Shown here one piece after another: positions 3,001-32,648 of a stretch of DNA of 64,000 nt. The notes beneath the pieces were generated by a model. That model had not been told where the DNA came from, did not search any database, and saw only the letters and a list, made by a program, of their open reading frames with translations. Source of the stretch: an uncultured Clostridia bacterium (lineage in GTDB: Bacteria; Bacillota; Clostridia; TANB77; CAG-508); NCBI GenBank assembly GCA_944389745.1, contig CALXNM010000002.1, forward strand, positions 27,389 through 91,388, read 5' to 3'. The translations under genes and the position numbers were made by a program. How positions within the stretch are numbered: the first letter of the stretch is position 1; every line of letters starts with the position of its first letter.

Positions 3001-4268
3001 TAGTATTACAAGGATTATTAACAGACAGAAATTATGGAACGATAAAAAATATACGTTGCAATTTAGTAGAATCTACAGAAAAATTAAATTTCGATATTTA
3101 TTTTATAACGAGTTTTAATTATGGAACAATAGAAAATTTTATTGTGAACTTGCAAAAGCCATTATTTGTTCAAAAAGGGGCAGCTACGGTTGCATATTAT
3201 AATTATGGAACGATAAAAAATGGCTATGTATATGGGGAGACGATAATGCAGCCAAATGGAGAAACTACGACGAATAGCGCTGGTTTAGTCAGAATAAATC
3301 AAAGAAATGGAATTGTGAAAAATGTATACTCTTTAATAAATGTTAATGGGTCAAATATTATATTTGATAATACTGATAATGCTACAGTACAAAATATATA
3401 TTCAGTTGGTGTAAGTAAAAATGCAGATTTAACACATGGACCTAATATATGTAATAAAAATTCAAAAAAAATATATAATAATTATTATTTTGCAGATGAA
3501 ATCTCTACAAGTGAATTAGAAATAAAAGGAAACATGTTATCTTTATGGGATTCTACATTCCAGAATCAGTTAATAAATAATGATGGGGCTTTTAATGTAA
3601 ATGAGTTAGTAAATGAAGGATATTATCCTCAATTAAATATGTCTGATGTAATGCCAGTACAGGATTATATTAAACTACCAGAAGTTGAAAATGCGGACTT
3701 ACCAGATATACTTTCTACTAAAGTATTAGAACAAGGAACTGATACTGTAAAAGTACAGTTCAGCATAAATAATCCATCAGCTGCACAAATAAGTGAAATA
3801 AAAATACAAAATTTAGATGTAGAAATATTATCACAGGAATACAATAACGGAAAAAGCGCAGTAATAGCAGAATTAAAAAACCCAATAATATGTGTGTCAA
3901 GTTATAATGTAATAAGCATAACCACTAAAGGAGCATTTGGTAGTTCATATACAAGACCATATGATGCTGGAGAAAGAGTAATAAATGTGGATTTATATAA
4001 AGGAATATGGAACATAAATGACTGGAAAGCTATAAATGACTCACCAATAGAAAATTACATGCTAATGGTAGATTTAGACTTTATAAATGAAGGTAATACA
4101 ATAAGCATTTCAAATGTCAATGGAATAATAAATGGAAATGGGCACAGTTTATCAAACGTAAATTTGACAGGAAGTGAAGTTCTTGTAAATCACTTATATG
4201 GAACGTTAGAAAATATATTTATCAATAATTTTAGCCAGATTGATAGTGAATGGCGGAGGTATTGTTAA
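1..4268 (+). CDS. Giant GLUG-repeat cell-surface protein, paralog 1, segment 1. It is 5'-partial because the gene begins upstream of the window. The reading frame breaks near 4240-4250.
   Basis: The ORF 9..4268 continues in frame back to nt 1 (..IDMDSKIEV matches ..INDIDMKSKIEV at about aa 265 of intact paralog 2). It is about 95% identical in protein to paralog 2 over roughly 1,400 aa. It then stops at NNFSQIDSEWRRYC*, while the homologous sequence continues in another frame. Confidence 0.85.
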   Translation, partial: IDMDSKIEVNGEELTYKEFLERLGIIQAEENNKTEETENTIENEIGENNVEEETTTHEENNESNTNKVETNKPTEQEWQEGQWEKPTVSCTDFESGVYTINTNLSVTDRAGVISRGVIFEIYLDGRLNRRVLATQTGNIEITNLQPDTEFEIRGAFYYYDEDGEEQVEEFYNGTVKTKPISALGTIDFSFQNGEIYSNKIELIHLKLNNDLNEEVIKGISRIQVEIGDVAFRLTNDQIDQLKAGEEITYQTSESLTSNSKIKYKITAFDRFGNELKAINNEGETITSKQSPRVSITATKQDVTEVILDVTLNNKDNVSLENYRYEITNQSGDIVKQGILGNNGTASDGSKETLTFNDLDPNGYYQIIIYGDYDLDNGEGKQQNEELGRASFVTRPLASLGYMQVHIDDKEVTQNSMNLGISIDENQTDARLLAILDKVEVVIYDRGKNVESNDGNNDGNSGSESNENAGDSDQGQQGDDNNTPTTETEVKRITFTEEQVQSLKIAEEIQLNLEQLNSNTKYRIDVITSVKQGTVETVVEDKQNLEQIITLKMPAEVQVRNQFVIGTMIDLDIRVEDSDGAVLVDQVRIEVRDKDNKLIDLSEMPTNADYERKTYENLTPNETYRIIVYAPQYNIGSTDATYEADYILKEIEIVTETGISGNLDLIGLEKTPTGKNLIDVASKVNWYEKCFGTDAKYGLNYDENTKILTLGETNGYNKYNYYDLSKYLGQEITISFKARTTDSAYMYISEKGNNDFNNGDYVDYYTINDLTSDWREYVYTVTISKTGYIGFRINSDNTLVEIQDLQAELGNRKTDYEQFQYNYNANVDITVIDARDEIETNDYYIRIYKNDEQIQEIRYEELGEDNEVENVQKTYGIEPDANYRIELLVKITDRYYELDSQEFSTAGSRELKGIFNLNDYLKIQPYGEYIVLDDIDVTGSEYEFGSYNLSFAGRVNFNGNTLTKEIKNSEDNQVQIFTVLDKTGIIENVVFDIKMNNDIEVVLQGLLTDRNYGTIKNIRCNLVESTEKLNFDIYFITSFNYGTIENFIVNLQKPLFVQKGAATVAYYNYGTIKNGYVYGETIMQPNGETTTNSAGLVRINQRNGIVKNVYSLINVNGSNIIFDNTDNATVQNIYSVGVSKNADLTHGPNICNKNSKKIYNNYYFADEISTSELEIKGNMLSLWDSTFQNQLINNDGAFNVNELVNEGYYPQLNMSDVMPVQDYIKLPEVENADLPDILSTKVLEQGTDTVKVQFSINNPSAAQISEIKIQNLDVEILSQEYNNGKSAVIAELKNPIICVSSYNVISITTKGAFGSSYTRPYDAGERVINVDLYKGIWNINDWKAINDSPIENYMLMVDLDFINEGNTISISNVNGIINGNGHSLSNVNLTGSEVLVNHLYGTLENIFINNFSQIDSEWRRYC

Positions 4269-8669: not shown

Positions 8670-8796
8670 AGAAAAATATAAAAAATAAAGTTACAATATA
8701 AAATAATTATGATATACTGTAGAAATAAAAAATATAATATAAACAAGTAGAGTAAATTTTAAGAAGGTTAAATAATTTATGCAAGGAGGTTTGAAT

Positions 8797-9576
8797 ATGG
8801 AGAATTATCCACCATATAGTATCACTGATAAGATGTTAAACTATGTTTCTGAAATAATGGAAAAAATAGGCGAAACAAATTATTTTATAAATTTAAATAA
8901 ATATCCAGAACTAAGAAGAAAAACAAGAATAAAATCAATCCATTCCTCTCTTGCAATTGAAAACAACCAGTTATCATTATTTCAAGTTGAAGATGTAATT
9001 AATGGAAAACTTGTTATAGGAGAACAAAAGGATATTCAAGAAGTAAAAAATGCTTTCAAAGCATATGAAGAGATAGGAAATGTAGATCCATATTCTATTG
9101 AAGATTTAAAAAGAGTTCAAGGAATTATGACTTATCTAATTGAGGAGGATAGTGGAAGATTTAGAAACCATGGAGAAGGTGTTTATGATGTGGACAAATG
9201 TATTTTTATGGCTCCATCTGAAAATATGGTACCGAAACTCATGGATAATTTATTTAATTGGATGAAAGAGGCAAAAAGCTCAGTAAATCCATTAATTTTA
9301 TCTTCAATTTTTCATTATGAATTTGTATTTATTCATCCATTCTCTGATGGAAATGGCAGAACTGCAAGACTATGGCAAACCGTTATTTTGTCTGATTGGA
9401 AAGAGATTTTTAAATATATTTCAATTGAAAGTATTATTAAAGAAAATCAGGAAGAATATTATAAAGCAATAGCCGATTGCAATCAAAAAGGAGATTCTAA
9501 TGAGTTTATAGAATTCATGTTAAAAGTTATAAATAAATCTATAGATGAAGTTATAAATTCAAAAGATGAAAAGTAA
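8797..9576 (+). CDS. fic: Fic/DOC family protein (AMPylation-type Fic domain)
   Basis: Canonical Fic motif HPFSDGNGRTARL. AAGGAGG lies 7 nt upstream of the ATG at 8797. The ORF-track start at 8779 sits directly at the RBS and is unlikely to be used. Confidence 0.8.
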   Translation: MENYPPYSITDKMLNYVSEIMEKIGETNYFINLNKYPELRRKTRIKSIHSSLAIENNQLSLFQVEDVINGKLVIGEQKDIQEVKNAFKAYEEIGNVDPYSIEDLKRVQGIMTYLIEEDSGRFRNHGEGVYDVDKCIFMAPSENMVPKLMDNLFNWMKEAKSSVNPLILSSIFHYEFVFIHPFSDGNGRTARLWQTVILSDWKEIFKYISIESIIKENQEEYYKAIADCNQKGDSNEFIEFMLKVINKSIDEVINSKDEK

Positions 9577-9787
9577 AAACGAATTATTATTTTCTGAAAG
9601 CGAAAAGAAAGTAATAGATTGTATTAGGACTAATATTCTTATAGGAACAAAAGAAATAATACAACAGACTAACATTTCTGATAGAACAGTTAGAAGAATT
9701 TTAAAAAAATTAGTTGAATGTAATATAATTGAATGTGTTGGGACAAATGAAAAAGCTCCAAACAAAAAATATAAAATGGTAGAGTAA
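9566..9787 (+). CDS. Winged-helix HTH domain ORF. It is probably the detached C-terminal domain of the Fic protein.
   Basis: The 73-aa ORF overlaps the Fic stop by 11 nt in another frame. ...DRTVRRILKKLVECNIIECVGTNEKAPNKKYKMV resembles the C-terminal wHTH of Fic-wHTH proteins. The junction is an A-rich tract (aaaagatgaaaagtaaaaac). Confidence 0.55.
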   Translation: MKSKNELLFSESEKKVIDCIRTNILIGTKEIIQQTNISDRTVRRILKKLVECNIIECVGTNEKAPNKKYKMVE

Positions 9788-9881: not shown

Positions 9882-9890
9882 TGATATAAT
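9882..9890 (+). promoter_or_regulatory. Extended -10 promoter (TGaTATAAT) for paralog 2
   Basis: TGnTATAAT is conserved at the equivalent position upstream of paralogs 3, 4 and 5. It implies a 5' UTR of about 420 nt. Confidence 0.55.
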
Positions 9891-9995
9891 GATTAATGAT
9901 AAATATATAAAACAAAAGCAAATGCTTGAAAATCAAGGAAAAAGAGGAAAGGAAAACTAGAAAGAAATGACAAGACTTGAAAGCCGCATGGCTCT

Positions 9996-10019
9996 AGAGA
10001 GAGAGAGAGAGAGAGAGAG
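9996..10019 (+). repeat. (AG)12 dinucleotide microsatellite in the leader
   Basis: Perfect AG x12. The orthologous tracts are (AG)14 at 22047-22074, (AG)11 at 32541-32562 and (AG)12 at 43984-44007. Confidence 0.95.
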
Positions 10020-10102
10020 GTACATTATTAAATAACGGATTCTTCGCAAGAAGAATCCTATTAAGCATGCTTAAAATAAATATATATAGCAAAGGTAAAG
10101 CA

Positions 10103-10169
10103 GGGATAGACTGTATTATTGTAAATGTTTGTAAGAAAAACATTTATGGTGATATGGTCTATCCTTTTT
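10103..10169 (+). terminator. Leader terminator-like hairpin plus U-tract (attenuator candidate), about 150 nt upstream of the start codon
   Basis: Outer stem gggatagac/gtctatcc and inner stem taaatgttt/aaacattta, then TTTTT. It is conserved in all four leaders with compensatory changes (see findings). Confidence 0.55.
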
Positions 10170-10316
10170 GTGTGTGAAAAAAAGTTTTATACACATCAAG
10201 TTGAAAGTGAGAAGACTTTAAATTGCAATAATATCGGCAACAACGATAAATATAAATTGAAATTCTAAAAACGAATGTAAGCAAAAATAATCAAAAGCAG
10301 AAAGGAAAGATGTGAA

Positions 10317-13300
10317 GTGAAAAAGAGAGAAGTTAGAAATAATGAGGCAAAGCAAAATAGAAAAATGCATAGAAGAAAAAATTTAGATAAAAGCCTAAAC
10401 AAAAATAAAACTAATAGAATAAACACAAAGAATCTACCAACTTTTATATTGATAGGTTTACTTCTAATGTTAATTATAATTGCAATAATTTACTATGTAT
10501 TCCTAAGATATGCCCCAGAAATGATAATTACATATAGTGGTTATGCCGTAGAAGGAAAAACAATGGTAGAGAACCTAAAAAATAGTGATTTAAGTAATGT
10601 GAACCCATACTTGGGTTTAGTTGAAGTGCATGAAAACGACCTACTATATAAAAGGATAAATTCATATTACATAGGCGAAGATGACAAAAAAGAAATAGAT
10701 ATAAATTATCCAATATACATTAACGAGGGGAATGCTTTACTAAACATCGGACAAAATACTAGGTTAATAACTGTAAATTACGAAGAAGTAGAAGGATATC
10801 CAGACTTCATGATGGCAGATGGAGTAATGTATAACGGAGCTGATATAACAAGAGCAGATGGAAACAAGTACATATTCTTAAAGAGCGAAGACGAAATTTA
10901 TACAAATGTAGGAAAGATAAATATAAGTACAGGATTAAATGAGTATGAGATTAAAGAATTCAGTAATATATATTTTACAGAGGATTATATAGCATACTAT
11001 GAGATGGAAGACGGAACTAATGCCAGCGACGGTAATGATGAAAATTCAGGTAATGCACAAAATAGAACAAATAATGTGCAAAATTGGTACATGCAATACA
11101 AGAGAATAAATGATATAGATATGAAGTCTAAGATAGAAGTTAATAATGAAACTATGTCCTACAAAACATTCTTAGAAAGATTAGGAATTATTCAATCAGA
11201 AGAAAACAATAACAGCAATGAAATTGTAAATGAAACGAACGAAATAGATGAAACAGCTGAAAACAATGTTGAAGAAGACAACATAACACATCAAGAAAAT
11301 AATTCAAATAAAAACAAAGTAGAAACAAATAAGCCAGATGAACAAAAATGGCAAGAAGGACAATGGGAAAAACCAACAGTAAGCTGTACAGATTTTGAAA
11401 GTGGAGTATACACAATAAGTACCAACCTTTCAGTAACAGATAAAGCAGGAGCAATTTCAAGAGGAGTAATATTTGAAATATACTTAGATGGAAGATTAAA
11501 TAGAAGAGCACTAGCAATACAAACTGGAAACATAGAGATAACAAACTTACAACCAGATACAGAATTTGAAATAAGAGGAATATTCTATTACTATGATGAA
11601 GAAGGAGTAGAACAGGAAGAAGAATTTTACATAGGAACAGTAAAAACAAAACCAATAAGTGCATTAGGAACAATAGACTTTAGTTTCCAAAATGGAGAAA
11701 TATACTCAAATAAAATAGAATTAATACACCTAAAATTAAACAATGACTTAAATGAAGAAGTAATAAAAGGAATATCAAGAATACAAGTAGAGATAGGAGA
11801 TGTAGCATATAGATTAACAAACGACCAAATAGACAAATTAAAAGCAGGGGAAGAAATAACATATCAAACAAGTGAAAGCTTAACATCAAATAGCAAGATA
11901 AAATACAAAATAACAGCATTTGATAGATTCGGAAATGAACTAAAAGCAATAAATAATGAAGGAGAAACAATAACATCAAAACAATCACCAAGAGTAAGCA
12001 TTACAGCAACAAAACAAGATGTAACAGAAGTAATACTTAATGTGACATTAAACAATAAAGATAACGTAAGTTTGGAAAACTATAGATATGAAATAACAAA
12101 CCAAAGTGGAGATATAGTAAAACAAGGAATATTAGGAAACAATGGAACAGCAAATGATGGAAGTAAAGAAACATTAACATTTAATGACTTAGACCCAAAT
12201 GGATATTATCAAATAATAATCTATGGTGATTACGACCTAGATAATGGAGAAGGTATGCAACAAAATGCAGAACTAGGAAGAGCAAGTTTTGTAACAAGAC
12301 CACTAGCTTCACTAGGATATATGCAAGTACATATAGATGATAAAGAAGTAACACAAGACAGTATGAATTTAGGCATAAGTATAGATGAAAACCAAACAGA
12401 TGCAAGATTGCTTGCTATATTAGATAAGGTAGAAGTAGTTATTTACGACCAAGGTAAGAATGTGGCTGATAATGGTGGAAACAATGATAGCGAAAACGAC
12501 GGTAGCAATGGTAATAACGATGGAAATGCTGACAATGAAGAAAGCACAGGTAGCAGCGATAATGGTGACAACCAAAGTGGCAACAGTGATTCCGAAAATA
12601 ATAACAGCATAACCACAGAAACCGAAGTAAAAAGAATAACATTCACAGAAGAACAAGTACAAGCATTAAAAATAGCCGAAGAAGTAGAATTAAATCTAGA
12701 CCAACTAAATTCAAACACAATATATAGAATAGATGTAATAACTACAGTAAAACAAGGAACTGTAGAAACAGTAGTTGAAGACAAACAAAACTTAGAAGAA
12801 TTAATAACACTAAAAATGCCAGCAGAAGTACAAGTAAGAAACCAATTTGTAATAGGTACTATGATAGATTTAGACATAAGAATAGAAGATATAGATAATG
12901 CAGTATTAACGGACCAAGTAAGAATTGAGGTAAGAGATAAAGACAATAAATTAATAGACTTAAGCGAAATGTCAACAAATGCAGACTATGAAAGAAAAAC
13001 ATACGAAGACCTAACACCAAACGAAACATACAAAATAATAGTATATGCTCCACAGTATAACATAGGAAGTACAGATGCAACGTATAAAGCAGATTATATC
13101 TTAAAGAAAATAGAAATTGTGACAGAAACAGGAATAAGTGGTAACATAGACTTAATAGGATTAGAAAAAACACCAACAGGAAAGAACTTGATAGATATGT
13201 CATCAAAAGTAAATTGGTATGAATATTGTTTTTTAAACTGGGAAAATCCATACGGCATTAGTTATGATGAAGATACGAAAATACTTACAATAGGAGGTTC

Positions 13301-16300
13301 GGTAGGAAATTTAAATAGAGCCTATTATAATTTAGTGGAATACTTAGGACAAGAAGTAACCATTAGTTTTAGGATAAAAAGTGAAGAAGATACACCATTA
13401 TATATAGTTGAAAAGGATAATGATGATTCGGAAAATACTGCATATACTATATATCAAACAATAACAGATTTATCAACCGAGTGGCAAGAATATAGTTATA
13501 CAGTTACCTTAAGTAAAAGTGGATATATTGGATTTATTGTTGCCAACTATTCGAAAGTGCAAATTGAAGATCTACAAATTGAATTAGGAAATAAAAAAAC
13601 AGATTACGAAAAATTTCAATACGATTACAACGCGAACGTTGGTATAACAGTAAATGATGAAAGAAATGAAATAACAACGAACGATTATTACGTAAGAATA
13701 TACAAAAACGACGAGCAAATTCAAGAAATTCGTTATGAAGAACTTGGAGAAGATAATGAAGTAGAAAATGTACAAAAAACATACAATATCGAACCTGATG
13801 CAAACTATAGGATAGAACTACTTGTAAAAATATCAGATAGATATTATGAACTAGACTCACAAGAATTTTCAACAGAAGATTCGAAAGAGATAAAAGGAAT
13901 AATAAATAAAAATGATTTCTTAAAAATACAACCGTATGGTGAATATATTGTGTTAAATGACATAGATTTATCAAGTAATAGTACTGACCAATATCGATTT
14001 GGAAATGGAGATTTGCCATTTGAAGGAAAAATTAATTTTAATGGAAACACTTTGCAAAGAAATGTAGAAAGTTCAAGAAGTTCGATATTTCATGTATTAG
14101 GAAACGATGCAATATTAGAAAACTTAGTATTTGACATAAAAATGAATAATGAAATTGCTGTGTCTATGAGTGGACTTGTAAATACTAATAGGGGGACAAT
14201 AAGAAATATACAAATCAATTTGTTAGAATCTACGGAAAAACAAAATTTTGATGTTTTTTTAATAACGAATTCGAATTACGGCTTGATTGAGAACTTTGTA
14301 GTTAATCTTGACGTACCACTTTATGTCTATAGAGGAGCTGGGGTTACGTACTCAAATAATGGAATTATCAGAAATGGGTATTTATATGGAGAGAATATCA
14401 AACTGCTTAGTTCAGAAAATATTACTAGTGATGTGGGAGGTGTAACCAGATATAATAACGGAAATGCGGTAATAGAAAATGTATATACTTTGGTAACTAT
14501 TGATTCTGTATACAATAATCAAACAAAAGGAAATATTACTGTTGTTAACCAAAACAATGCAACTGTTCAAAATGTATATTCAGTGGGAATTGGCGAAAAT
14601 ACTAACTTAACCAGAGGACCAAATGTATATTTAAAAACATCAAAAAAAGTATACAATAATTATTATTTCGCAGATGAAATATTTACTAGCGAATTAGAAA
14701 CAAAAGGAAATAAATTATCGTTATGGGACGCACAATTTCAAAATCAATTAATAAATGGTGATGGGGCGTACACTGTAGATGAACTTGTAAATCAAGGGTA
14801 CTATCCTCATTTAAATATGCCAGATGTAATGCCGGCACAAGAGTATATAGAGTTACCGGAAGTAGAAGACGCTGATTTACCTGATATATTATCCACAAAA
14901 GTTTTAGAACAAGGAACTGATATGGTAAAAGTACAGTTTAGTGTTAATAACCCCTCTTCTGCACAAATTAATGATATACAAATAGAAAATTTAGATGTGG
15001 AAATCTTATCACAAGAATATAGTAGTGGAAAAAACACAGTAATAGCAGAACTAAAAAATCCAGTAATATGTGTATCAAGCTATGATGTACTAAGTATAAG
15101 TACAATAGGAGCATTTGGAAGCTCATATAAAAGACCATATGAAGAAGGAGAAAGAACAATAAATGTTGACTTATATAAGGAAATATGGAGCGTAAATGAC
15201 TGGAAAGCAATAAAAGATTCACCAACAGAAAATTATATGTTAATGGAAGACCTAGATTTTATAAATGAAGGAAACACAGTATCTTTAGGAACAATAAATG
15301 GAATATTAAATGGAAATGGACACAGTGTATCTAATATATATTTAACAAGCGATACCCATATCATAACAAACCTATATGGAACATTAGAGAACTTATTTAT
15401 TAACAATTTCAACCAAGATGGAAACTATGGTGGGGGCTTGGTGGGGGATGCTCTTATTGGTTCTGTAGTTGACAATGTTCATATGAGGAACGTGAGTATT
15501 GTGAAAACAGAAAGTAGCAGTGTCGGAGGACTGTTGGGACACGCAAATTATAGTGACATAAAAAATTGTTCATTAAATGATATTCAAATAGAAACAAAAG
15601 GAAATGTGAGTAACATTTTTATAGGAGGGATGGTTGGTCAGATTGATTACACTTCTATGGAAAACTGCTATGTGAGAGGATTACAGGTAAAAGATGCTAA
15701 AGGTGTGGATGCTGGAATTGGTGGAGTAGTAGGTTATGGTTCTGGAACAAATGATATAAAAGATTGTTATGCAGAAGGAACAATAACTTCGGTTAATATA
15801 AATGTAGGTGGGATTATTGGACAATTATATTCTGGAGAAATAAAAAATTGCTATTCAAAAGTAAAAATTTCAACAACAAATAGCAATGTTGGAGGAATAG
15901 TGGGAATTTTCTCTGGAAGTGATGTAAACACTATATCTAACAATTTGAGTATTGGTACTATATATACAACTTCAGGATTAAGTACTTTAAATAGAATAAT
16001 AGGAAATAGTGAAGATACAGTTGATAGTAATTATGCATATGAAAATCAATTGTTAAATGGATATGTGAATAGAGATAGTAAAGGAGCTATACTATTAAGT
16101 GTAGAAGAAATCTCAGAATTAGAACTAGGAGATAGTTATAATTCTGATAAAGAGAAAAATGGAGTTTTACCAAAATTATACAACACAGAAGGAACAGAAT
16201 TATTACCAAATCAAGAAGCTATCTATGTAGATGATAATATATCAAATAGTGGGGCAAACTTAGTAGTAGAAAGTATAGAGGCAATAAAGCCAAATAGTTC

Positions 16301-19300
16301 AGAAGCAGAAATATCAGTAAGAATAATTAATCCGGAAGAAGTAGAAATAACAGAAATAGAGATAGAAGATATGTTAAGCTCAGTAACAAGAAATGTAACA
16401 CAAAATGGAATAACAAGTATAACAGTACGTGCTACACCAACAAGATATTATGATAGCTATAAGCTGACTGGTATAAAATACAAAGTGGATACTTTAGAAG
16501 AAGAACAATCAAAAGAAGTAGAAAACGAAATACAGGTGCAATTCTATAAGGAAATATATACATATGAAGATTGGCAAAGCATAGAAGCAGATACTTATCA
16601 GAATTATAGATTAATGGCTGACATAGACTTTACAGGTAAAACAAATATAAAAAATAATATAAATGTAAATAGACTAGAAGCAGAGAACAATTTGTATACA
16701 CTAAAAAATATAGAATTAGAGTTTAACGAACAAAATACAGGATTAATAAATAATGTGAAAACAAGTATTAAAAATATTGGATTTGAAAATATAACATTAA
16801 CTAACTCAGTTAATTCAGGAAATTATTTTGGATTGATTGCGACTAACACAGGAGATTCTGTAAACTTAAAATTTACAAAAGTAAAAATTTATGGTTATGG
16901 AATAGATTATGTGGGAATTATTGGTGGAACAATCTCGGGCTATATAAGAGATATTGAAATTAAAGAAATTGAAATTTATGGAAATAATTATACAGGTGGC
17001 TTAGTTGGATATATGGACGTAAATGAGTATGAAGAAGTAGATAATATTATAGGCAATCATATTACTGTACAAAGTTCTGGAAACTTTGCAGGTGGGATAT
17101 TTGGCAGGCAAGATTCTAATGTTTCATTAGAAACCACTGTTCAAACCAACAATTTGGAAATAAATAATTCAAATATTACAGGAAAAGATTATGTGGGGGG
17201 GCTATTTGGTTATGTGCAATATGGAAGTTTAAAAAACTTGGAAACGAACAAAACAAACATTTCTGGAAGTTCGTATGTAGGAGGAATATCGGGATATTTC
17301 AATTCAACAGATGGAAATTATTATAGGTATTATTTTCAAATCAATTCATCAACCATAAATGGAAGTGGATATTACATAGGCGGGATAACAGGATTTATGA
17401 ATCATGGAGAAACAAAGTATTTAGTTGTAAGTGGTTCTACAATAAATGCTCCTTCAGTAAGTTCACAATACATTGGCGGAATTACCGGTGGTTTTTTATG
17501 GGAGCATATGTGTGATATTCAAGTAGTTAATACTATAATAAGTAGTAATGGAATTAACGTAGGCGGAATTGGAAATGTTATTGGTGATGGCTCCGGTGGA
17601 GTATATTATGGATATGTTGATAATACTACTATTCAAGGAAATTATAATGTTGGTGGTGTGATGGGAAAAACAAAGTATAGTTATACCAGTCATATATATA
17701 TAAATGCTGACATAAAAGCAAATTCATCAGCAGCAGGAGGTGTAGTAGGTTTTTTGTCTAATGCTAATATGACTTCGCTATATGATGTCATTCGTGTTGA
17801 TGATACAATGGTATTGAATAGTTCTATATCATCTCCGACAAATGCAGGAGGCTTGATTGGCGATATAGCAAAAGAAATTTATAGAGACCAATCGTTCTAT
17901 TACAACAATTACATTGATGCAGATGTGACAAGCGAAAATACTTCAACAGGGTCACTAATAATAGGAGGAAGACCAGACGAAAACACATATATAGAAAATA
18001 CATATGTGTATAGATATAGTAGTTTAAATGGAAATTACGTATATGCAACAAATGATAATATTGAAGATGACCAATATTTAGTAAGAAGTGATTTAGATGT
18101 TCAAAGTACATTTTCTAGTACGATTGGATTAGGAACAACATACTGGAGCTATGAGTCATTAGCAGAAGGAAAATATCCAAAAATAAAAGATAGTTATTTA
18201 TACCACCCAGAATTACAAACTGGTGTGGACCTACCAACAGATCCAGAAATTTCATCAATAAACGCACTAAGTGTTGGAGATGAAATTAGCGAAGATAGTG
18301 CTAATGAGATAGGACCTAGCACAAACAATATAGCAGATAAAAATGGAATATCAACGCAAAGTGTAGAATCATTACCAAGTTATAAAGTGTATCCAACAAA
18401 GGTAAATGAAATAAACATAGACTTTAGCAATATGCCAGAAGGAGTAAGTTTCACGTACTACGTAAATGGTGATGAAAAAGAGACTAATGAATTAACTAAG
18501 AGAACATATACATTTAAATACAACTATCGAGACACATTAGAAATTAAACTAACAAATGACACAGACGAAGAAACAATCACAATAACACCAGACGATGTAA
18601 GAAGTGAAGCAAGCTTGGCAGGTAGCAACAACGTATACTTATTAGGTACAAACTTATACATTAATGGAGAATTACAACAAGGAGAATATGTAAATGTATA
18701 TGGTAGTTATGCACTAAATAGTAGTGGACAAATCTTGGATATAGAAACAAAGCAATTAACAAGCACAAATACTACAAATGAAACAAGTGAAAACTCAGGA
18801 ATAAATGCAACTAAAGCAAATGACTCAGCTAGTGATATAGCAACATCAAACGATGAACTTGAAGTGATTACAACCTCATTAAAACAAACAACAACACCAC
18901 TTCACACATATGCTTATAAAGGAAACAACATAGAAGTTTATGGAACATATAGCACAGTAGATGGCAATGTAAAATCACAAATATATAATGTAAGAAACGG
19001 ACAACTTTCTGCAATATCAAACAATGTAGATATGAAAATTGAAAACAGTATAATAGATAACTACAACGATAAAGAGTATCAAACAATATTAAATACTTCA
19101 GGAAAATTAGTTGATTTAAAAGAACAACTACAATATCCAAATAACTTCTTAAGTAACAATATAAAGCAAATAGTACAAAATACAGATGCAGAAAAAACAG
19201 AAATGCTAGTATTGTATAACACAGGCAAAGTAATTGTATTTAATTATGTAACAGGAAATGTAGTATATGAAAACGACGAAAAAGCGGATTCAGGCTTAGT

Positions 19301-19904
19301 AAGTTATCTAACAAGAAGTTTCTCAAATATATGGAGTGATTATGAAGATAGGTGGCAAGAATATGCTAAGAGTAAAGAATTAGAAACAAAACTTGCGGAA
19401 TTATCAGTGGAAGAGGCAATACAAAAAGCATCAAACAACAGTGAGATAAATGCTATAAGCAATAATATAGCTGGTAATGTAAATACAAACCAAAGCAATA
19501 ATGCTACTAACAGTATCAGCACTAACAATACAAATAATGCAAGCGGAAGCTCAAGCACTGACAATGCTAGCTCAAGTACCAGCACAAATACTATAGCAGA
19601 TAACAGCTACATTACAGTCTACAATGCAGATACAGGAGAGTATGAAGTATACAGCGAAGAAGAAATATTAAATGGAGAAGATGAAAATCCGGTATCTGAA
19701 ACAGAAAAAATAAAAGAAAATGGACTAGAAGGAGTATATGGATATGACACAAAAGAAGAAACAAAGCCACAAGCGAATGGAGCAATAATAGTAATCTCAA
19801 TAATAGCTGTAGCTGTAATAGCATTAGTTGTCTTAAGAAAAGTAATTGTAAAAAATAACAACAAAAAAGAGAAAACAAACAAAGACAATAGTAAAATTAA
19901 ATAG
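10317..19904 (+). CDS. Giant GLUG-repeat cell-surface protein, paralog 2. It is intact at 3,195 aa. It has an N-terminal signal-anchor TM helix, Ig-like and CBM-like domains, two GLUG/beta-helix cassettes and a C-terminal TM anchor.
   Basis: Uninterrupted ORF with a GTG start 10 nt after AGGA. It is paralogous end to end with the 44302..53880 gene. N-terminal TM helix: FILIGLLLMLIIIAIIYYVFL. C-terminal TM helix: AIIVISIIAVAVIALVVL followed by RKVIVKNNNKKEK. Confidence 0.9.
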   Translation: MKKREVRNNEAKQNRKMHRRKNLDKSLNKNKTNRINTKNLPTFILIGLLLMLIIIAIIYYVFLRYAPEMIITYSGYAVEGKTMVENLKNSDLSNVNPYLGLVEVHENDLLYKRINSYYIGEDDKKEIDINYPIYINEGNALLNIGQNTRLITVNYEEVEGYPDFMMADGVMYNGADITRADGNKYIFLKSEDEIYTNVGKINISTGLNEYEIKEFSNIYFTEDYIAYYEMEDGTNASDGNDENSGNAQNRTNNVQNWYMQYKRINDIDMKSKIEVNNETMSYKTFLERLGIIQSEENNNSNEIVNETNEIDETAENNVEEDNITHQENNSNKNKVETNKPDEQKWQEGQWEKPTVSCTDFESGVYTISTNLSVTDKAGAISRGVIFEIYLDGRLNRRALAIQTGNIEITNLQPDTEFEIRGIFYYYDEEGVEQEEEFYIGTVKTKPISALGTIDFSFQNGEIYSNKIELIHLKLNNDLNEEVIKGISRIQVEIGDVAYRLTNDQIDKLKAGEEITYQTSESLTSNSKIKYKITAFDRFGNELKAINNEGETITSKQSPRVSITATKQDVTEVILNVTLNNKDNVSLENYRYEITNQSGDIVKQGILGNNGTANDGSKETLTFNDLDPNGYYQIIIYGDYDLDNGEGMQQNAELGRASFVTRPLASLGYMQVHIDDKEVTQDSMNLGISIDENQTDARLLAILDKVEVVIYDQGKNVADNGGNNDSENDGSNGNNDGNADNEESTGSSDNGDNQSGNSDSENNNSITTETEVKRITFTEEQVQALKIAEEVELNLDQLNSNTIYRIDVITTVKQGTVETVVEDKQNLEELITLKMPAEVQVRNQFVIGTMIDLDIRIEDIDNAVLTDQVRIEVRDKDNKLIDLSEMSTNADYERKTYEDLTPNETYKIIVYAPQYNIGSTDATYKADYILKKIEIVTETGISGNIDLIGLEKTPTGKNLIDMSSKVNWYEYCFLNWENPYGISYDEDTKILTIGGSVGNLNRAYYNLVEYLGQEVTISFRIKSEEDTPLYIVEKDNDDSENTAYTIYQTITDLSTEWQEYSYTVTLSKSGYIGFIVANYSKVQIEDLQIELGNKKTDYEKFQYDYNANVGITVNDERNEITTNDYYVRIYKNDEQIQEIRYEELGEDNEVENVQKTYNIEPDANYRIELLVKISDRYYELDSQEFSTEDSKEIKGIINKNDFLKIQPYGEYIVLNDIDLSSNSTDQYRFGNGDLPFEGKINFNGNTLQRNVESSRSSIFHVLGNDAILENLVFDIKMNNEIAVSMSGLVNTNRGTIRNIQINLLESTEKQNFDVFLITNSNYGLIENFVVNLDVPLYVYRGAGVTYSNNGIIRNGYLYGENIKLLSSENITSDVGGVTRYNNGNAVIENVYTLVTIDSVYNNQTKGNITVVNQNNATVQNVYSVGIGENTNLTRGPNVYLKTSKKVYNNYYFADEIFTSELETKGNKLSLWDAQFQNQLINGDGAYTVDELVNQGYYPHLNMPDVMPAQEYIELPEVEDADLPDILSTKVLEQGTDMVKVQFSVNNPSSAQINDIQIENLDVEILSQEYSSGKNTVIAELKNPVICVSSYDVLSISTIGAFGSSYKRPYEEGERTINVDLYKEIWSVNDWKAIKDSPTENYMLMEDLDFINEGNTVSLGTINGILNGNGHSVSNIYLTSDTHIITNLYGTLENLFINNFNQDGNYGGGLVGDALIGSVVDNVHMRNVSIVKTESSSVGGLLGHANYSDIKNCSLNDIQIETKGNVSNIFIGGMVGQIDYTSMENCYVRGLQVKDAKGVDAGIGGVVGYGSGTNDIKDCYAEGTITSVNINVGGIIGQLYSGEIKNCYSKVKISTTNSNVGGIVGIFSGSDVNTISNNLSIGTIYTTSGLSTLNRIIGNSEDTVDSNYAYENQLLNGYVNRDSKGAILLSVEEISELELGDSYNSDKEKNGVLPKLYNTEGTELLPNQEAIYVDDNISNSGANLVVESIEAIKPNSSEAEISVRIINPEEVEITEIEIEDMLSSVTRNVTQNGITSITVRATPTRYYDSYKLTGIKYKVDTLEEEQSKEVENEIQVQFYKEIYTYEDWQSIEADTYQNYRLMADIDFTGKTNIKNNINVNRLEAENNLYTLKNIELEFNEQNTGLINNVKTSIKNIGFENITLTNSVNSGNYFGLIATNTGDSVNLKFTKVKIYGYGIDYVGIIGGTISGYIRDIEIKEIEIYGNNYTGGLVGYMDVNEYEEVDNIIGNHITVQSSGNFAGGIFGRQDSNVSLETTVQTNNLEINNSNITGKDYVGGLFGYVQYGSLKNLETNKTNISGSSYVGGISGYFNSTDGNYYRYYFQINSSTINGSGYYIGGITGFMNHGETKYLVVSGSTINAPSVSSQYIGGITGGFLWEHMCDIQVVNTIISSNGINVGGIGNVIGDGSGGVYYGYVDNTTIQGNYNVGGVMGKTKYSYTSHIYINADIKANSSAAGGVVGFLSNANMTSLYDVIRVDDTMVLNSSISSPTNAGGLIGDIAKEIYRDQSFYYNNYIDADVTSENTSTGSLIIGGRPDENTYIENTYVYRYSSLNGNYVYATNDNIEDDQYLVRSDLDVQSTFSSTIGLGTTYWSYESLAEGKYPKIKDSYLYHPELQTGVDLPTDPEISSINALSVGDEISEDSANEIGPSTNNIADKNGISTQSVESLPSYKVYPTKVNEINIDFSNMPEGVSFTYYVNGDEKETNELTKRTYTFKYNYRDTLEIKLTNDTDEETITITPDDVRSEASLAGSNNVYLLGTNLYINGELQQGEYVNVYGSYALNSSGQILDIETKQLTSTNTTNETSENSGINATKANDSASDIATSNDELEVITTSLKQTTTPLHTYAYKGNNIEVYGTYSTVDGNVKSQIYNVRNGQLSAISNNVDMKIENSIIDNYNDKEYQTILNTSGKLVDLKEQLQYPNNFLSNNIKQIVQNTDAEKTEMLVLYNTGKVIVFNYVTGNVVYENDEKADSGLVSYLTRSFSNIWSDYEDRWQEYAKSKELETKLAELSVEEAIQKASNNSEINAISNNIAGNVNTNQSNNATNSISTNNTNNASGSSSTDNASSSTSTNTIADNSYITVYNADTGEYEVYSEEEILNGEDENPVSETEKIKENGLEGVYGYDTKEETKPQANGAIIVISIIAVAVIALVVLRKVIVKNNNKKEKTNKDNSKIK

Positions 19905-20131: not shown

Positions 20132-21805
20132 ATGGAGTTTAATGGCATAGGAATAGGAGAAAGTGATTTTAAAAGTTTACGAATAAAAAATAATTATTTT
20201 ATAGACAAAACAATGTATATAAAAGATATAATAGATAACCAAAGTAAAGTAATATTAGTAACTAGGCCACGTAGATTCGGAAAAACATTAAATATGAGTA
20301 TGCTAAGATATTTTTTTGATTGCAATATAAAAAACTCAAAAGAATTATTTGAAGGACTAAAAATAATGAAGCAAGAAGAAAAATACACATCAAAATTAGG
20401 AACGTACCCATGCATATATTTAACATTAAAGGATTTAAATGTTAGCTCATATGAATATATGTTAATGCAAATGAAAACAGTAATGATGGAAATATTTTTT
20501 GAAAAAAGGTATTTGCTTGAAAGTGAAATTTCAGAAGGAGAAAGAGAAATATATAATAAAATGATGGCAGCCAAGGTTAATGAAATGGAACTTATAAATA
20601 GTGTAAAAATATTATCAAAAATGCTTTATAATTATCATAATAAACCAGTAATGCTATTTATAGATGAATACGATGTTCCAATTCAAGCAGCGTATGTAAA
20701 AGGATATTATGAAAAAGCAATAGAATTTCTAAAAACATTTTATGGAACAACATTTAAAGACAACCAATACTTAGAAAAAACAGTATTAACAGGAGTAAGC
20801 AGAGTAGCAAAAGAAAGTATATTCAGTGGAGCAAATAACTTTAAAGTATTTACGGTACTGGACAATGAATTTGCAGATGATTTTGGAATAACAAGCGAAG
20901 AAATGGATAAGGTAATAAAAGACTTTAACGTAAAAGATGAAAAAGACGAAATAAAAAAATGGTATGATGGGTATAGAATAGGAAATGTAGAAGGCATATA
21001 CAATCCATGGAGTATTTTAAATTATCTAACAGATAAAGAATTAAAACCATATTGGGTAAATACTAGTTCAAATGACTTAATAAAATTAACATTGAAAAAC
21101 TCAGTAACAATAAAAGAAAAAATGGAAAAACTATTAAAAGATGAAGAAATAGAAGTACCAATAAATCTAGAAACAATAATAGTAGGAATAGAAGAAAATG
21201 AAGATAACATCTGGGGCTTAATGTTAGGAACAGGGTATTTGAAAGTAGTAGAAGTGGTAAACTTAGCAGAAGGAATATATAAAGTAAAAATACCAAATTA
21301 TGAAATAAAAACACTATTTCAAGACATAGTAAGAGACTGGTTCAGAAATAAAGTACAAGGAAATGACTTAAGAAGTATATTAAAAGATTTAGTAGAACTA
21401 AATTTAGACGAATTCCAAATGAAATTTAGAGTACTAGTAAGAGAAATGTTTAGTTATATGGATGTAGGAGAGAACACAGCAGAAAATTTCTACCATGCAT
21501 TTGTATTAGGAATGTTAGTAGGACTAAGAGACACATACTATGTAAATTCAAATAGAGAATCTGGATTTGGAAGATACGACATCATGTTAGAACCACATGA
21601 CAAAAACGGAAATAGCTTTATAATAGAATTTAAAGTAGCAAACAACTTCGAAGATGAAACAATAGACGAAGTAATAGAAAGCGCAAAAAAACAAATAGAA
21701 GAAAAAGGATATGAAAGCAATTTAAGAGAAAGAGGCTTCAATAACATAACAAAAATGGTATTTGCATTTAAAGGAAAAGAATGCAAAATGGAAGTAGTAA
21801 AATAA
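20132..21805 (+). CDS. AAA-ATPase-like (PF09820-type) protein with a C-terminal PD-(D/E)XK nuclease-like domain
   Basis: The N-terminus MEFNGIGIGESDFKSLR..YFIDKT..TRPRRFGKTLNMSML is typical of this family. AAGGAGGA RBS. 557 aa. Confidence 0.75.
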   Translation: MEFNGIGIGESDFKSLRIKNNYFIDKTMYIKDIIDNQSKVILVTRPRRFGKTLNMSMLRYFFDCNIKNSKELFEGLKIMKQEEKYTSKLGTYPCIYLTLKDLNVSSYEYMLMQMKTVMMEIFFEKRYLLESEISEGEREIYNKMMAAKVNEMELINSVKILSKMLYNYHNKPVMLFIDEYDVPIQAAYVKGYYEKAIEFLKTFYGTTFKDNQYLEKTVLTGVSRVAKESIFSGANNFKVFTVLDNEFADDFGITSEEMDKVIKDFNVKDEKDEIKKWYDGYRIGNVEGIYNPWSILNYLTDKELKPYWVNTSSNDLIKLTLKNSVTIKEKMEKLLKDEEIEVPINLETIIVGIEENEDNIWGLMLGTGYLKVVEVVNLAEGIYKVKIPNYEIKTLFQDIVRDWFRNKVQGNDLRSILKDLVELNLDEFQMKFRVLVREMFSYMDVGENTAENFYHAFVLGMLVGLRDTYYVNSNRESGFGRYDIMLEPHDKNGNSFIIEFKVANNFEDETIDEVIESAKKQIEEKGYESNLRERGFNNITKMVFAFKGKECKMEVVK

Positions 21806-21877: not shown

Positions 21878-21886
21878 TGTTATAAT
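21878..21886 (+). promoter_or_regulatory. Extended -10 promoter (TGtTATAAT) for paralog 3. A second TATAAT lies at 21891-21896.
   Basis: Motif position and leader homology. Confidence 0.45.
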
Positions 21887-22046
21887 AGTTTATAATTGAA
21901 GCATACTTGTTTTGTAAAAGCAATCTGCAAAAGCTAAATTAGATTTAAGACAGATATATAAAACATAAGCAAATGCTTGAAAATCAAGGAAAAAGAGGAA
22001 AGGAAAACTAGAAAGAAATGATGAAGTCTGAAAACCGCATGGCTCT

Positions 22047-22077
<31 letters not shown>

Positions 22078-22157
22078 CATTATTAAATAACGGATTCTTC
22101 GCAAGAAGAATTCTATTAAGCATGCTTAAAATAAATATATATAGCAAAGGTAAAGCA

Positions 22158-22224
22158 GGGATAGACTGTATTACTGTAAGTGTTTGTAAGAAAGCACTTA
22201 TGGCAATATAGCCTATCCTTTTTT
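22158..22224 (+). terminator. Leader terminator-like hairpin plus U-tract (paralog 3 copy)
   Basis: gggatagac...gcctatcc with inner stem aagtgttt/aagcactt, then TTTTTT. Confidence 0.5.
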
Positions 22225-22313
22225 GCGTGTAAAAAAACAAAAAAGTAAATAAGAAAATTAAATACTTTAGAGAAAATTTATAAAAAGCAAAAGCAGAAAG
22301 GATTTGAGGTATA

Positions 22314-25300
22314 GTGAAAAAGAGACAAGCTAGAGGTGCTAAGGTAAAGGAAAATAGAAAACCAAATAAAGGATTAAACCAGAATAAAACCAAACGAATA
22401 AACACAAAGAACTTACCAACTTTTATATTAATAGGTTTGATTATAATGCTTATAATAATAGCAATAATTTACTACGTATTTCTAAGATATGCCCCAGAAA
22501 TGATAATTACATATAGTGGTTATGCAATAGAAGGAAAAACAATAGTAGAAAACCTAAAAAATAGTGATATGTCTAATGTAACCCCATACTTGGGTTTAAT
22601 TGAAGTGCATGAAAATGACTTGTTATATAAAAGATTAAATTCATACTATATTGGAGAAGATGACAAAAAAGAAATAGATATTAACTATCCAATATATATA
22701 AATGAAGGAAATGCTTTATTAAATATAGGAAAAAATACAAAATTAATCACAGTAAATTATGAAGAGGTAGAAGGATACCCAGACTTCATGATGACAGATG
22801 GAGTAATGTATAATGGAGCAGATATAACAAGAGCGGATGGAAACAAGTATATATTCTTAAAGAGCGAAGATGAAATTTATACAAATGTAGGAAAAATAAT
22901 AATTAATACAGCATCAAATAAGTATGAAATAAAGGAATTCAGTAACATATACTTTACAGAAAATTATATTACATATTACGAGATGGAAGATAACTCATCA
23001 GATGTTACAAAAGATGAATTAAAGAGTAATATGCAAAATTGGTACATGCAGTATAAAAGAATAAATGATATAGACATGGATTCTAAAATAGAGGTAAATG
23101 GAGAAACTATTTCATATAAAACTTTTCTAGTGAGACTTGGAATCATACAAGCAGAAGAAAACAATAAGAATAACATTGAAAACGTAGTAGAAGAAAACAC
23201 AGTAAAAGAAGAAGACAACACAACACATGAAGAAAATAATTCAAATAAAAACAAAGTAGAAACAAATAAGCCAGATGAACAAAAATGGCAAGAAGGACAA
23301 TGGGAAAAACCAACAGTAAGCTGTACAGACTTTGAAGGAGAAGTGTATACAATAAGAACAAATCTATCTGTAACAGATAGAGCAGGAGTAATATCAAGAG
23401 GAGTAATATTTGAAATATATTTAGATGGAAGATTAAATAGAAGAGTACAAGCAACACAAACAGGATTACTTGAAATAACAGGATTACAACCAAGCTCAGA
23501 ATATGAGATTAGAGGAATATTCTACTACAATGATGAAGACGGAAAAGACCAAGAAGAAGTATTCTACAATGGAACAGTAAAAACAAAACCAATAAGTGCA
23601 TTAGGAACAATAGACTTTAGCTTCCAAAACGGAAAAATATATTCAAACAAAATAGAATTAATACACTTAAAACTAAATAATGACTTAAATGAAGAAGTAA
23701 TACGTGGAATTTCAAGACTACAAGTAGAAATAGGAGATGCAGCATATAGACTAACAAATGACCAAATAGATGAATTAAAAGCAGGAAAAGAAATAACTTT
23801 CCAAACAAGTGAAAACCTAACATCAAATAGCAAGATAAAATATAAAATAACAGCATTTGATAGATTCGGAAATGAACCAAAAGAAAAAAATAATACAGGA
23901 GAAACAATAACATCAAAACAAGAACCAAGTGCAAGTATAAGAGTAACAAAACAAGACGTGACAGAAGTGGATTTAGAAGTAACATTGACCAACAAGGACA
24001 ATGTATCTTTAGAAAATTATAGATATGAAATAACAAATCAAAGTGGAGATGTAGTAAAACAAGGAACTTTAAACAAAAACAGTGATAAAGAAACATTAGT
24101 ATTTAATGACCTTGATCCAAATGGATACTACCAAATCACAATTTATGGAGATTACGACATAGAAAATGGAGATGGAAAACAAGAAAATGCAGAAATAGGA
24201 AAAGCAAGCTTTGTTACAAGACCACTAGCATCACTTGGATACATGCAAGTAAAAATAGATGACAAAGAAGTAAAACAAGACAGTATGAATTTAGGAATAA
24301 GCATAGACACAAATCAAACAGATTCAAGATTAGTAGCTATTTTAAATAAAGTAGAAATTGTAATTTATGATCAAGGAAAAAATATAGAGTATGAAGAAGA
24401 AGAGCCAGAAGAAACAGAGGTAAAAAGAATAACCTTTACTGATGAGGAAGTTGAGCAATTAAAAGTAGCAGAGGAAGTAGAACTAAACTTAGAACAATTA
24501 AACTCAAATACAAAATATAGAATAGATGTAATAACGACAATAAAACAAGGTTCGGTGGAAGCAGTTGTAGAAGATAAACAAAACCTAGAACAACTAATAA
24601 CATTAAAAATGCCAGCAGAAGTACAAGTAAGAAACCAATTTGTAATTGGAGACATGATAGATTTAGACATGAGAATAGAAGACCAAGATGGTGCGGTTTT
24701 AGTAGATAAGGTAAGAATAGAAGTAAGAGACAAAGACAATAAATTAGTTGATTTAAGTGAAATGCCAACAAATGCAGACTATGAAAGAAAAACATACGAA
24801 AACCTAACGACAAATGAAACATATAGAATTATTGTATACGCACCACAATACAACGAAGGAAGTACAGATGCAACATATGAAGCAGACTATATCTTAAAAG
24901 AAATAGAAATAGTAACAGAAACAGGAATAAGTGGCAGATTGGACTTAATAGGTTTAGAAAAAACACCGACAGGAAAGAATTTAATAGATGTAACATCAAA
25001 AGTAAATTGGTATGAAAAATGTTTTGGGACAGGCTATAAATATGGTTTGAAATATGATGAAAATACGAAAATACTTACATTAGGTGGCTCAACATCATAT
25101 AACAATATAAATTACTACGACTTAAGTAAATATTTAGGACAAGAAATAACTATAAGTTTTAAAGCTAGAAAACAAGGGAACACCAATTTATTAATAGTAG
25201 AAAAAAGCAGTAATGATTTTAACAATACCAGCTATACAACATATTATACAATAAGCAATCTAAGCGATAATTGGCAAGAATATAGTTATACTGTAAATTT

Positions 25301-32370: not shown

Positions 32371-32379
32371 TGATATAAT
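32371..32379 (+). promoter_or_regulatory. Extended -10 promoter (TGaTATAAT) for paralog 4
   Basis: Same motif and context as 9882-9890 and 43815-43823. Confidence 0.5.
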
Positions 32380-32540
32380 AATTTTCAATTGGAGATAGAC
32401 TTGTTAGGCTAATGCAAGATATAAAAGTCCAATTTGATTTGAAATAATTATTTAAAAATTAAGTAGAATGCATAGAAAATAAGGAAAAGAAGAAAGGAAA
32501 ACTAGAAAGAAATGATAAGGCTTGAAAACTGCATGGCTCT

Positions 32541-32562
32541 AGAGAGAGAGAGAGAGAGAGAG
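32541..32562 (+). repeat. (AG)11 microsatellite in the paralog 4 leader
   Basis: Perfect AG x11. Confidence 0.95.
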
Positions 32563-32648
32563 GTACACTATTAAATAACAAATTCTTCGCAAGAAGAATC
32601 TTATTAAGCATGCCTCAAATTTCTAAAAATATAGATAAAGTAACTACA

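Follow-up and report, generated by a model that had tools for sequence, protein, structure and literature searches.

In a 64-kb stretch of the genome of an uncultured Clostridia bacterium (GenBank assembly GCA_944389745.1, contig CALXNM010000002.1, positions 27,389 to 91,388; hereafter, the window), four giant genes are each preceded by a conserved leader that contains a perfect (AG)n dinucleotide repeat. The reading that we prefer, and to which we give a probability of about 0.7, is that each giant surface-protein gene is gated by its own phase-variable leader-peptide attenuator, in which the (AG)n tract is the element that slips. The tract lies inside a short upstream open reading frame (uORF), and the number of AG units decides the frame in which the uORF leaves the tract. 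In one phase of three the frame runs on into or through a terminator-like hairpin; in the other two phases it stops almost at once.

A direct repeat search recovered the four tracts at the coordinates and with the repeat numbers that a first-pass annotation of the window had listed (Table 1; all tracts are on the plus strand). They are the only dinucleotide arrays of at least 6 units in the 64 kb, and (AG)10 appeared in none of 100 dinucleotide-preserving shuffles of the window. When the four upstream regions were aligned, they formed a conserved leader of about 430 nucleotides (nt) in which the AG tracts all fell into one column. Across the four leaders the immediate flanks read ...C[CT]GCATGGCTCT(AG)nGTACA[TC]TATTAAATAAC..., and the blocks GCATGGCTCT and TATTAAATAAC are invariant. 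The first-pass annotation had also described conserved flanks, but with the tract followed by GGTACA; the conservation holds, and the extra G does not, as the base after the tract belongs to GTACA.

Each leader has an invariant extended −10 box, TGATATAAT or TGTTATAAT, the end of which lies 97 to 152 nt upstream of the tract start. The annotation had placed the tract about 100 to 160 nt downstream of a promoter, which is close to these measured distances. Judged by its sequence, the box is a putative promoter at which transcription of the leader would start. A simple −35/−10 scan did not flag it, because the −35 is poor. The uORF begins about 70 to 125 nt downstream of the box, depending on the leader. 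In all four window leaders its ATG is 29 nt before the tract, which is entered after nine codons and read as (ER)n, so that the N terminus of the peptide is M..RMAL(ER)n. A Shine-Dalgarno (SD)-like GAAAGGA is located about 11 nt before the ATG, a spacing longer than optimal. Directly 3′ of the tract, the invariant TATTAAATAAC gives TAA in two frames, 12 and 16 nt past the tract.

Two hairpins follow. The one that we call hairpin 1 starts, in leader 1, just past the two out-of-phase stop codons; its position and conservation suggest that it is possibly a pause hairpin. About 85 nt after the tract there is a terminator-like stem of 26 to 29 bp with a T-run (z, −6.6 to −8.7 versus shuffles), which, from its sequence and predicted folding, may act as an intrinsic terminator or attenuator. 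The giant genes have start signals of their own. For giant gene 1, the ribosome-binding site (RBS) AAAGGA at 10301 to 10306 is optimally spaced from the GTG at 10317. The GTG codons of the four genes (10317, 22314, 32771, and 44302) are 209 to 297 nt past the tracts, with stop codons between.

The leaders differ from one another by two longer segments. In leaders 2 to 4, but not in leader 1, about 55 nt are inserted between the −10 box and the uORF (approximately 21890 to 21945, 32383 to 32438, and 43827 to 43882; alignment columns 200 to 255). In leaders 1 and 4, those of the two intact genes, the terminator and the RBS are separated by an additional segment of about 95 nt (about 10178 to 10272 and 44170 to 44257). 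This segment is missing from leaders 2 and 3; it also follows the second of two serial modules at a related locus, L017 (see below). An internal promoter in the 95-nt segment was considered and dropped, as a scan found no plus-strand promoter between the hairpin and the gene.

All frames of the leaders were translated. With 12 AG units the uORF ends in ...ERYIIK, and with 11 or 14 units it ends in ...EVHY; in the window leaders these two phases (n = 0 or 2 mod 3) reach a stop 3 to 5 codons past the tract. Only n = 1 mod 3 (10, 13, or 16 units) joins the uORF to a latent frame of 45 to 53 codons that extends through hairpin 1 and the terminator stem. The stop codon of this long frame is found between 7 nt before and 8 nt after the T-run: 8 nt after it in copies 1, 3, and 4, and in the 3′ arm of the stem in copy 2. 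Among 5,000 dinucleotide shuffles per leader, a frame this long occurred in 0.4 to 2.7% (P = 0.012 for leader 1 and 0.016 for leader 4); the value was 19% for the short type of leader from a rabbit metagenome described below. The first-pass annotation had hinted that (AG)12, which precedes both intact genes, is the permissive length. Since uORFs with 12, 11, or 14 units are all short and end upstream of the terminator, 12 is not the permissive number on the attenuator reading, and the presence of (AG)12 before both intact genes is probably a coincidence. The annotation had also raised the option that the tract changes the phase of a short leader ORF, and this idea fits both the anatomy and the comparative data.

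The proposed mechanism is as follows. Transcription would start at the conserved extended −10 promoter, and the uORF that begins some 70 to 125 nt on would run into the tract. Slipped-strand mispairing during replication would alter n by whole AG units and thereby shift the phase of the uORF. When n is 0 or 2 mod 3, the ribosome would meet a TAA 12 or 16 nt past the tract, just before hairpin 1. After such an early stop, the hairpin of about 28 bp with its T-run would form, most transcripts would end there, and the gene would be OFF or low. When n is 10, 13, or 16, the ribosome would translate 45 to 53 codons through hairpin 1 and the terminator stem and so keep the stem open. RNA polymerase would then read through, and the giant gene would be translated from its own RBS and GTG (ON). 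We infer that the promoter is active, that ribosomes translate the uORF, that transcription ends at the hairpin, and that the ON state corresponds to the long phase; the direction of the switch is taken by analogy from experiments with Streptococcus gallolyticus (see below). By the n mod 3 rule, all four window copies would currently be OFF.

Table 1. Positions of the giant genes and of the leader elements in the 64-kb window
Feature	Copy	Positions	Strand	Details
(AG)12	1	9996-10019	+	Perfect repeat
(AG)14	2	22047-22074	+	Perfect repeat
(AG)11	3	32541-32562	+	Perfect repeat
(AG)12	4	43984-44007	+	Perfect repeat
Extended −10 promoter-like box	1	9882-9890	+	TGATATAAT; block conserved in four leaders
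Extended −10 box	2	21878-21886	+	TGTTATAAT
Extended −10 box	3	32371-32379	+	TGATATAAT
Extended −10 box	4	43815-43823	+	TGATATAAT
Short uORF, current phase	1	9967-10035	+	22 aa; MTRLESRMALERERERERYIIK, then stop; contains tract
Short uORF, current phase	2	22018-22086	+	22 aa; ...EREVHY, then stop
Short uORF, current phase	3	32512-32574	+	20 aa
Short uORF, current phase	4	43955-44023	+	22 aa
Hairpin 1	1	10037-10058	+	GGATTCTTC GCAA GAAGAATCC; 9 bp; −13.6 kcal/mol; z −6.4
Hairpin 1	2	22092-22113	+	
Hairpin 1	3	32580-32601	+	
Hairpin 1	4	44025-44046	+	
Terminator-like stem-loop	1	10103-10169	+	About 28 bp + T5; −34.3 kcal/mol; z −8.7
Terminator-like hairpin	2	22158-22224	+	T6; −32.9 kcal/mol; z −6.6
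Terminator-like hairpin	3	32649-32715	+	T5; −31.8 kcal/mol; z −7.6
Terminator-like hairpin	4	44094-44160	+	T5; −37.5 kcal/mol; z −8.0
Latent long frame	1	10019-10177	+	52 codons; GTLLNN...YPFCV, then TGA 8 nt after T-run
Latent long frame	2	22074-22211	+	45 codons; TAG in terminator 3′ arm
Latent long frame	3	32562-32723	+	53 codons; TGA after T-run
Latent long frame	4	44007-44168	+	53 codons; TGA after T-run
Giant gene with RBS	1	10301-19904	+	GTG 10317; 3195 aa; intact
Giant gene with RBS	2	22297-31494	+	Split: ORFs 22314-29294, 29320-31494
Giant gene with RBS	3	32755-42171	+	Split: ORFs 32771-33832, 34419-37802, 37747-42171
Giant gene with RBS	4	44286-53880	+	GTG 44302; 3192 aa; intact

Leaders of relatives were collected through homologues of the giant proteins and with the DNA pattern of the tract flanks. 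We counted 25 loci (designated by L numbers), 19 with uORF-type leaders and 6 with tracts inside the giant gene. The tract-flank pattern recurs in metagenome-assembled genomes (MAGs) recorded as "uncultured Clostridia bacterium", namely, a 1.70-Mb HiFi chromosome (OZ006978.1) and a MAG from rabbit. Three other matches were rejected as due to chance: L015 and L016, from a scan of Joint Genome Institute (JGI) metagenomes with the tract-flank pattern, lie in high-GC contigs, and L006, from a genome scan, lies within a coding region. When the neighboring Fic gene was looked up, the sole return was a 1.6-kb contig whose end falls short of the tract.

Each of the 19 uORF-type leaders has exactly one phase in which a long frame extends as far as the terminator, whereas the other two phases meet a stop codon within 3 to 16 codons. 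This geometry persists where the sequence does not. In a diverged clade (L020 and L021), the uORF geometry is kept and both hairpins are preserved by compensatory changes, among them a UA-to-GC change in hairpin 1. The rabbit MAG leaders (L009 and L013) have a different spacer sequence with their own hairpin and T-run, and their long frame ends in the hairpin loop. In L022 and L023, a clade with proteins only about 40% identical, a frame of 107 to 109 codons passes through three hairpin/T-run elements and meets the main start codon in the sequence TAATG; this frame is in phase in L023, where it had been annotated as a 127-aa gene. Finally, in five loci (L017, L018, L019, L022, and L023) an (AC)8-15 repeat replaces (AG)n in the homologous uORF, and one phase still opens the long frame. 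Because AG and AC are interchanged while the geometry is kept, what is conserved is a frame-shifting dinucleotide repeat before a terminator and not the AG sequence itself.

The hairpins are also conserved as structures. Among 13 leaders, pairing was maintained in 96.7% of the cells of the two helices, as against about 48% in controls with slid partners, and compensatory changes were seen at 5 pairs. All 14 copies of the hairpin motif were preceded by an AG or AC tract of at least 8 units, and the motif was found nowhere else in the window or in the fetched loci. The possibility that it is a dispersed palindrome resembling a miniature inverted-repeat transposable element was rejected, since the motif is confined to these leaders and always stands behind a tract.

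One locus has the module twice. At 21410 to 22088 in L017, which is the orthologue of window leader 4, where the module is single, two modules are arranged in series before one giant gene. An (AG)9 uORF with a hairpin and T-run comes first; after it there is a complete (AC)15 uORF, MVNLESVGAV(HT)n, likewise followed by a hairpin and T-run.

In six paralogs on the complete MAG chromosome OZ006978.1 (L005, L007, L008, L011, L012, and L014), the AG tract is inside the 5′ coding sequence of the giant gene. There the cassette M..NRMAL(ER)n-ATLLNN is the true N terminus of the giant protein and leads straight into a membrane helix. These genes need n = 1 mod 3 to be in frame, and one of the six is (n = 13). 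Since the in-gene tract sets the frame of the giant gene, the family uses the tract as a frame switch. A repeat within the structural gene is a feature of the OZ006978 paralogs only and is absent from the giant genes of the window. In L004 (region 1395 to 1560), the in-gene tract has n = 14, which puts the gene out of frame, and position 1501, recorded as the gene start, is inside the membrane helix. The 5′ untranslated region of L004 contains a conserved hairpin, TGTGCCA...TGGCACA.

Compared with the sequence around it, the tract is hypermutable. In the window, copy 4 has 12 units, and the same locus in metagenome ERZ24773440 has 11; the 3192-aa product is identical, as are 3,000 of 3,000 flanking nt. 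L010 and L018 have 13 and 11 units with 596 of 600 flanking nt identical, and L005 and L011 have 11 and 17 units with 513 of 513 identical. Copy 1 had 12 units in three assemblies. These comparisons support slippage, which the first-pass annotation had proposed from the length differences among the leaders. The permissive phase was found in 2 of 19 uORF-type leaders and 1 of 6 in-gene tracts; compared with an expectation of one third, 3 of 25 loci has a binomial P of about 0.015, with the reservation that the loci are not independent. A low share of permissive tracts is the pattern expected of a mostly silent contingency family.

Three other explanations were considered, and each explains less than the attenuator reading does. 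The leader could be a neutral relic that arose when the 5′ coding end of an in-gene paralog was duplicated and then decayed; its tract would slip without affecting the giant gene, which would be expressed via its own RBS by constitutive readthrough or from an unrecognized internal promoter. The uORF and long frame do start with NRMAL(ER)n-TLLNN, the true N terminus of the in-gene paralogs; the main ORFs have their own well-spaced RBSs; the segment of about 95 nt described above follows the hairpin in leaders 1 and 4; and all four window copies are in a nonpermissive phase with two of the genes intact. A relic, however, would not be expected to keep a long frame running into the terminator despite differing spacers and the replacement of AG by AC, a frame that is improbable in shuffles. 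Nor would it account for compensatory changes that maintain the hairpin pairing or for a long tract before 14 of 14 hairpins, and no plus-strand promoter-like site was found between the hairpin and the gene. We consider this explanation unlikely.

There are two further alternatives. In one, the repeat acts as RNA: (AG)n would be a structural leader element or a binding site for a protein, with Hfq as a candidate, and its length would tune expression. The distal face of Gram-positive Hfq binds (AG)n, a view reportedly based on the structure of Bacillus subtilis Hfq with (AG)3A; the tract is, by prediction, part of the transcript and largely unpaired; and its 22 to 28 nt could accommodate one or two Hfq hexamers. 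However, (AC)n in the homologous leaders would not bind the same partner, and Hfq- or TRAP-like binding of (AG)n was set aside on that ground. An effect on structure, the option of leader RNA folding raised in the first pass, fares no better. In a model of the leader 1 transcript, the basal stem of the terminator had a pairing probability of 0.999 at every n from 6 to 18 and the tract was mostly unpaired, and a search of the whole window against Rfam at gathering thresholds found no known RNA family. The reading-frame geometry is also left unexplained, and we regard a role of the repeat as RNA as very improbable. Because predicted folding is constant and AG and AC are interchangeable, the reading phase is the only n-dependent feature left. 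In the other alternative, the repeat acts as DNA, forming a triplex or Z-DNA that impedes RNA polymerase according to its length without any translation. Polypurine (AG)n and alternating (AC)n are classical formers of non-B DNA, and the tract is downstream of the promoter-like box. A DNA structure has no need, however, of a uORF, of out-of-phase stops right after the tract, of a single long frame, or of a constant terminator, and in the in-gene paralogs the tract plainly works via the reading frame; we regard this explanation, too, as very improbable.

Several observations weigh against the attenuator itself. Initiation at the uORF may be weak, given its SD spacing of about 11 nt. At about 28 bp, the stem is longer than those of typical intrinsic terminators, and it exceeded the loop and stem limits of a simple terminator scan, which missed it. 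Three leaders, window copy 2 among them, have lost 1 nt, which puts the stop of the long frame in the 3′ arm, so that the precise position of its end is not conserved. Part of the long frame could come from an ancestral coding sequence, as TLLNN is shared with the in-gene version. Tight coupling of transcription and translation is not universal in Firmicutes. Lastly, all four window copies are nonpermissive (12, 14, 11, and 12 units), yet two genes of 3.2 thousand codons are intact. Either all of the window copies are silent in the majority population, or they are expressed via readthrough or another promoter.

The closest known system to the attenuator that we propose is pil1 (and pil3) of S. 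gallolyticus, as a class of mechanism and not as a homology family. In pil1, a (GCAGA)n repeat is within a leader-peptide ORF upstream of a stem-loop terminator, and pilus transcription rises when the peptide is lengthened to stop in the hairpin or beyond it, as the ribosome then destabilizes the terminator; the evidence came from start-codon, stop-codon, and terminator-deletion mutants (Danne et al. 2014, PMC3894217). The window leaders share every feature of this type that can be seen in sequence: a length-variable repeat within a short leader ORF that has its own start and an RBS-like element, and a terminator-like hairpin between the leader ORF and the structural gene. In both systems it depends on the repeat number whether the stop codon of the leader ORF falls before the hairpin or, instead, in it or beyond it. 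In both, too, surface structures of a Firmicute are gated, and the majority state is low or OFF, as predicted for the window. There are also differences. The unit here is AG or AC in 8 to 17 copies, versus about 22 copies of the pentanucleotide GCAGA, and only one of three phases is long, whereas in pil1 an added or lost repeat lengthens the peptide. The hairpin is much longer and also more stable, at about −30 to −37 kcal/mol versus −18.7 kcal/mol in pil1. Unlike that of pil1, the switch is copied before at least 4 to 7 paralogous giant genes per genome, the tract is in the gene in some paralogs, and two modules are in series in L017. The leaders have no sequence homology to the pil1 leader.

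Other phase-variable and attenuated genes resemble parts of the system. The outer-membrane protein genes sabA, oipA, and hopZ of Helicobacter pylori have CT/AG repeats in the 5′ coding region, and the Neisseria opa genes have CTCTT repeats. In these genes slippage of a short repeat near the N terminus of a surface protein switches the frame on and off, exactly as in the in-gene paralogs; in the window, by contrast, a separate uORF holds the tract about 300 nt from the structural gene, and a terminator stands between the two. Because of that placement, the predicted control is transcriptional, by attenuation, and not by truncation of the protein. The leader ORF of Escherichia coli pyrBI extends through an intrinsic terminator, and a ribosome trailing the polymerase blocks the hairpin; pausing that depends on uridine triphosphate (UTP) sets the coupling. 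Our proposal likewise has a leader ORF that passes through the terminator and a ribosome that prevents the hairpin, but the coupling would be set genetically, at random, by the repeat phase. The first-pass annotation had compared the tracts with the (GAA)n repeat of Mycoplasma gallisepticum vlhA, which precedes the promoter and affects the initiation of transcription, with a single length being permissive. A variable repeat upstream of each member of a multigene surface-protein family, with most copies silent, is common to both. The analogy is not the closest, however, since vlhA is controlled at the promoter, whereas the window tract is downstream of the −10 box and inside a uORF, and the relevant variable is n mod 3. 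Placement of the repeat within or upstream of the core promoter, which characterizes simple sequence repeats that act as promoter spacers or upstream activating elements, is not seen in the window leaders.

The giant proteins are plausibly at the cell surface, judging from their sequences. The copy 1 protein has a K/R-rich N-terminal tail, a membrane helix (residues 39 to 60), an ectodomain of about 3,090 residues, and a second membrane helix (residues 3151 to 3175). Sequence searches of Pfam, NCBIfam, and PDB gave little: the ectodomain has a GLUG motif and weakly matches a putative IgA1 protease, and nothing more was found; there are many metagenomic homologues, none of them named. ORF calls bore out the first-pass distinction between intact copies 1 and 4 and broken copies 2 and 3. 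A partial first copy is also present, and with copies 2 and 3 it makes three of the five giant genes in the window that are split into two or three ORFs. The junctions are at 4240 to 4268, 29294 to 29320, 33832 to 34419, and 37747 to 37802, and similar splits occur in L017. The split genes could be pseudogenes, assembly errors, or something else. Slippage at simple repeats was rejected as the cause of the splits in giant genes 2 and 3, as the junctions are not at simple repeats. Homopolymers of six or seven G's are found in the giant-gene coding sequences (17195 to 17201, 28731 to 28736, and 38158 to 38163) in a genome of 29% G+C, and they might be further slippage sites.

The window, which is also 29% G+C, carries sporulation and housekeeping genes of Firmicutes, e.g., those for YqfD and YbeY. 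Each gap between giant genes holds one or two genes (8779 to 9576, about 9566 to 9787, 20132 to 21805, and 42417 to 43694). These encode a Fic/DOC protein and a small helix-turn-helix protein, an AAA-ATPase_like and PDDEXK_9 protein, and an AAA_14 and DUF4143 protein. In relatives the gaps have AbiEi/AbiEii or DUF6922/AbiEii genes (L018, 19548 to 20962; L022, 1452 to 2455; L023, 1428 to 2425). Several of the gap genes belong to toxin-antitoxin or defense-associated families. Just upstream of the DUF4143 ATPase gene, at 42292 to 42372, is a 23-nt tandem repeat of 3.7 copies, TTAAAAAATGTATATTAA... Directly downstream of giant gene 4, at 54082 to 57535, are genes for a response regulator, an ABC-2 transporter pair, and a histidine kinase, a module that is probably unrelated to the giant genes. 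An unusual 433-aa ORF at 61324 to 62625 fuses YbeY endoribonuclease, diacylglycerol kinase, and PAP2 phosphatase domains.

In the literature that we searched, phase variation by a repeat in a leader peptide before a terminator has been demonstrated experimentally only for the S. gallolyticus pili. Added to this kind of switch here are the dinucleotide unit, the single permissive phase, the multigene giant family, the coexistence of in-gene and uORF modes, the interchange of AG and AC, and the tandem modules. We suggest, tentatively, that the attenuator is the control layer of a family-wide antigenic variation in which each of many doubly membrane-anchored giants is kept OFF by a dinucleotide switch of its own and only one or a few are ON in a given cell, in line with the 3 of 25 loci in the permissive phase; the cassette would move between the in-gene position and the uORF with its terminator, swap AG for AC, and stack as an AND gate, as in L017. 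We think this wider scheme possible but less than even odds. Annotation pipelines miss these uORFs and can misplace the start of the in-gene versions, as the L004 start inside the membrane helix illustrates. If the wider scheme is true, this type of switch would be a general modular device of gut Firmicutes and not a curiosity of Streptococcus. The occurrence of the same logic, with another repeat unit, before every member of the giant family in several lineages of gut Clostridia suggests a recurrent, portable design. On the attenuator reading, the value of n mod 3 would be a concrete sequence rule for predicting which of these surface proteins of about 3,000 residues a population expresses.

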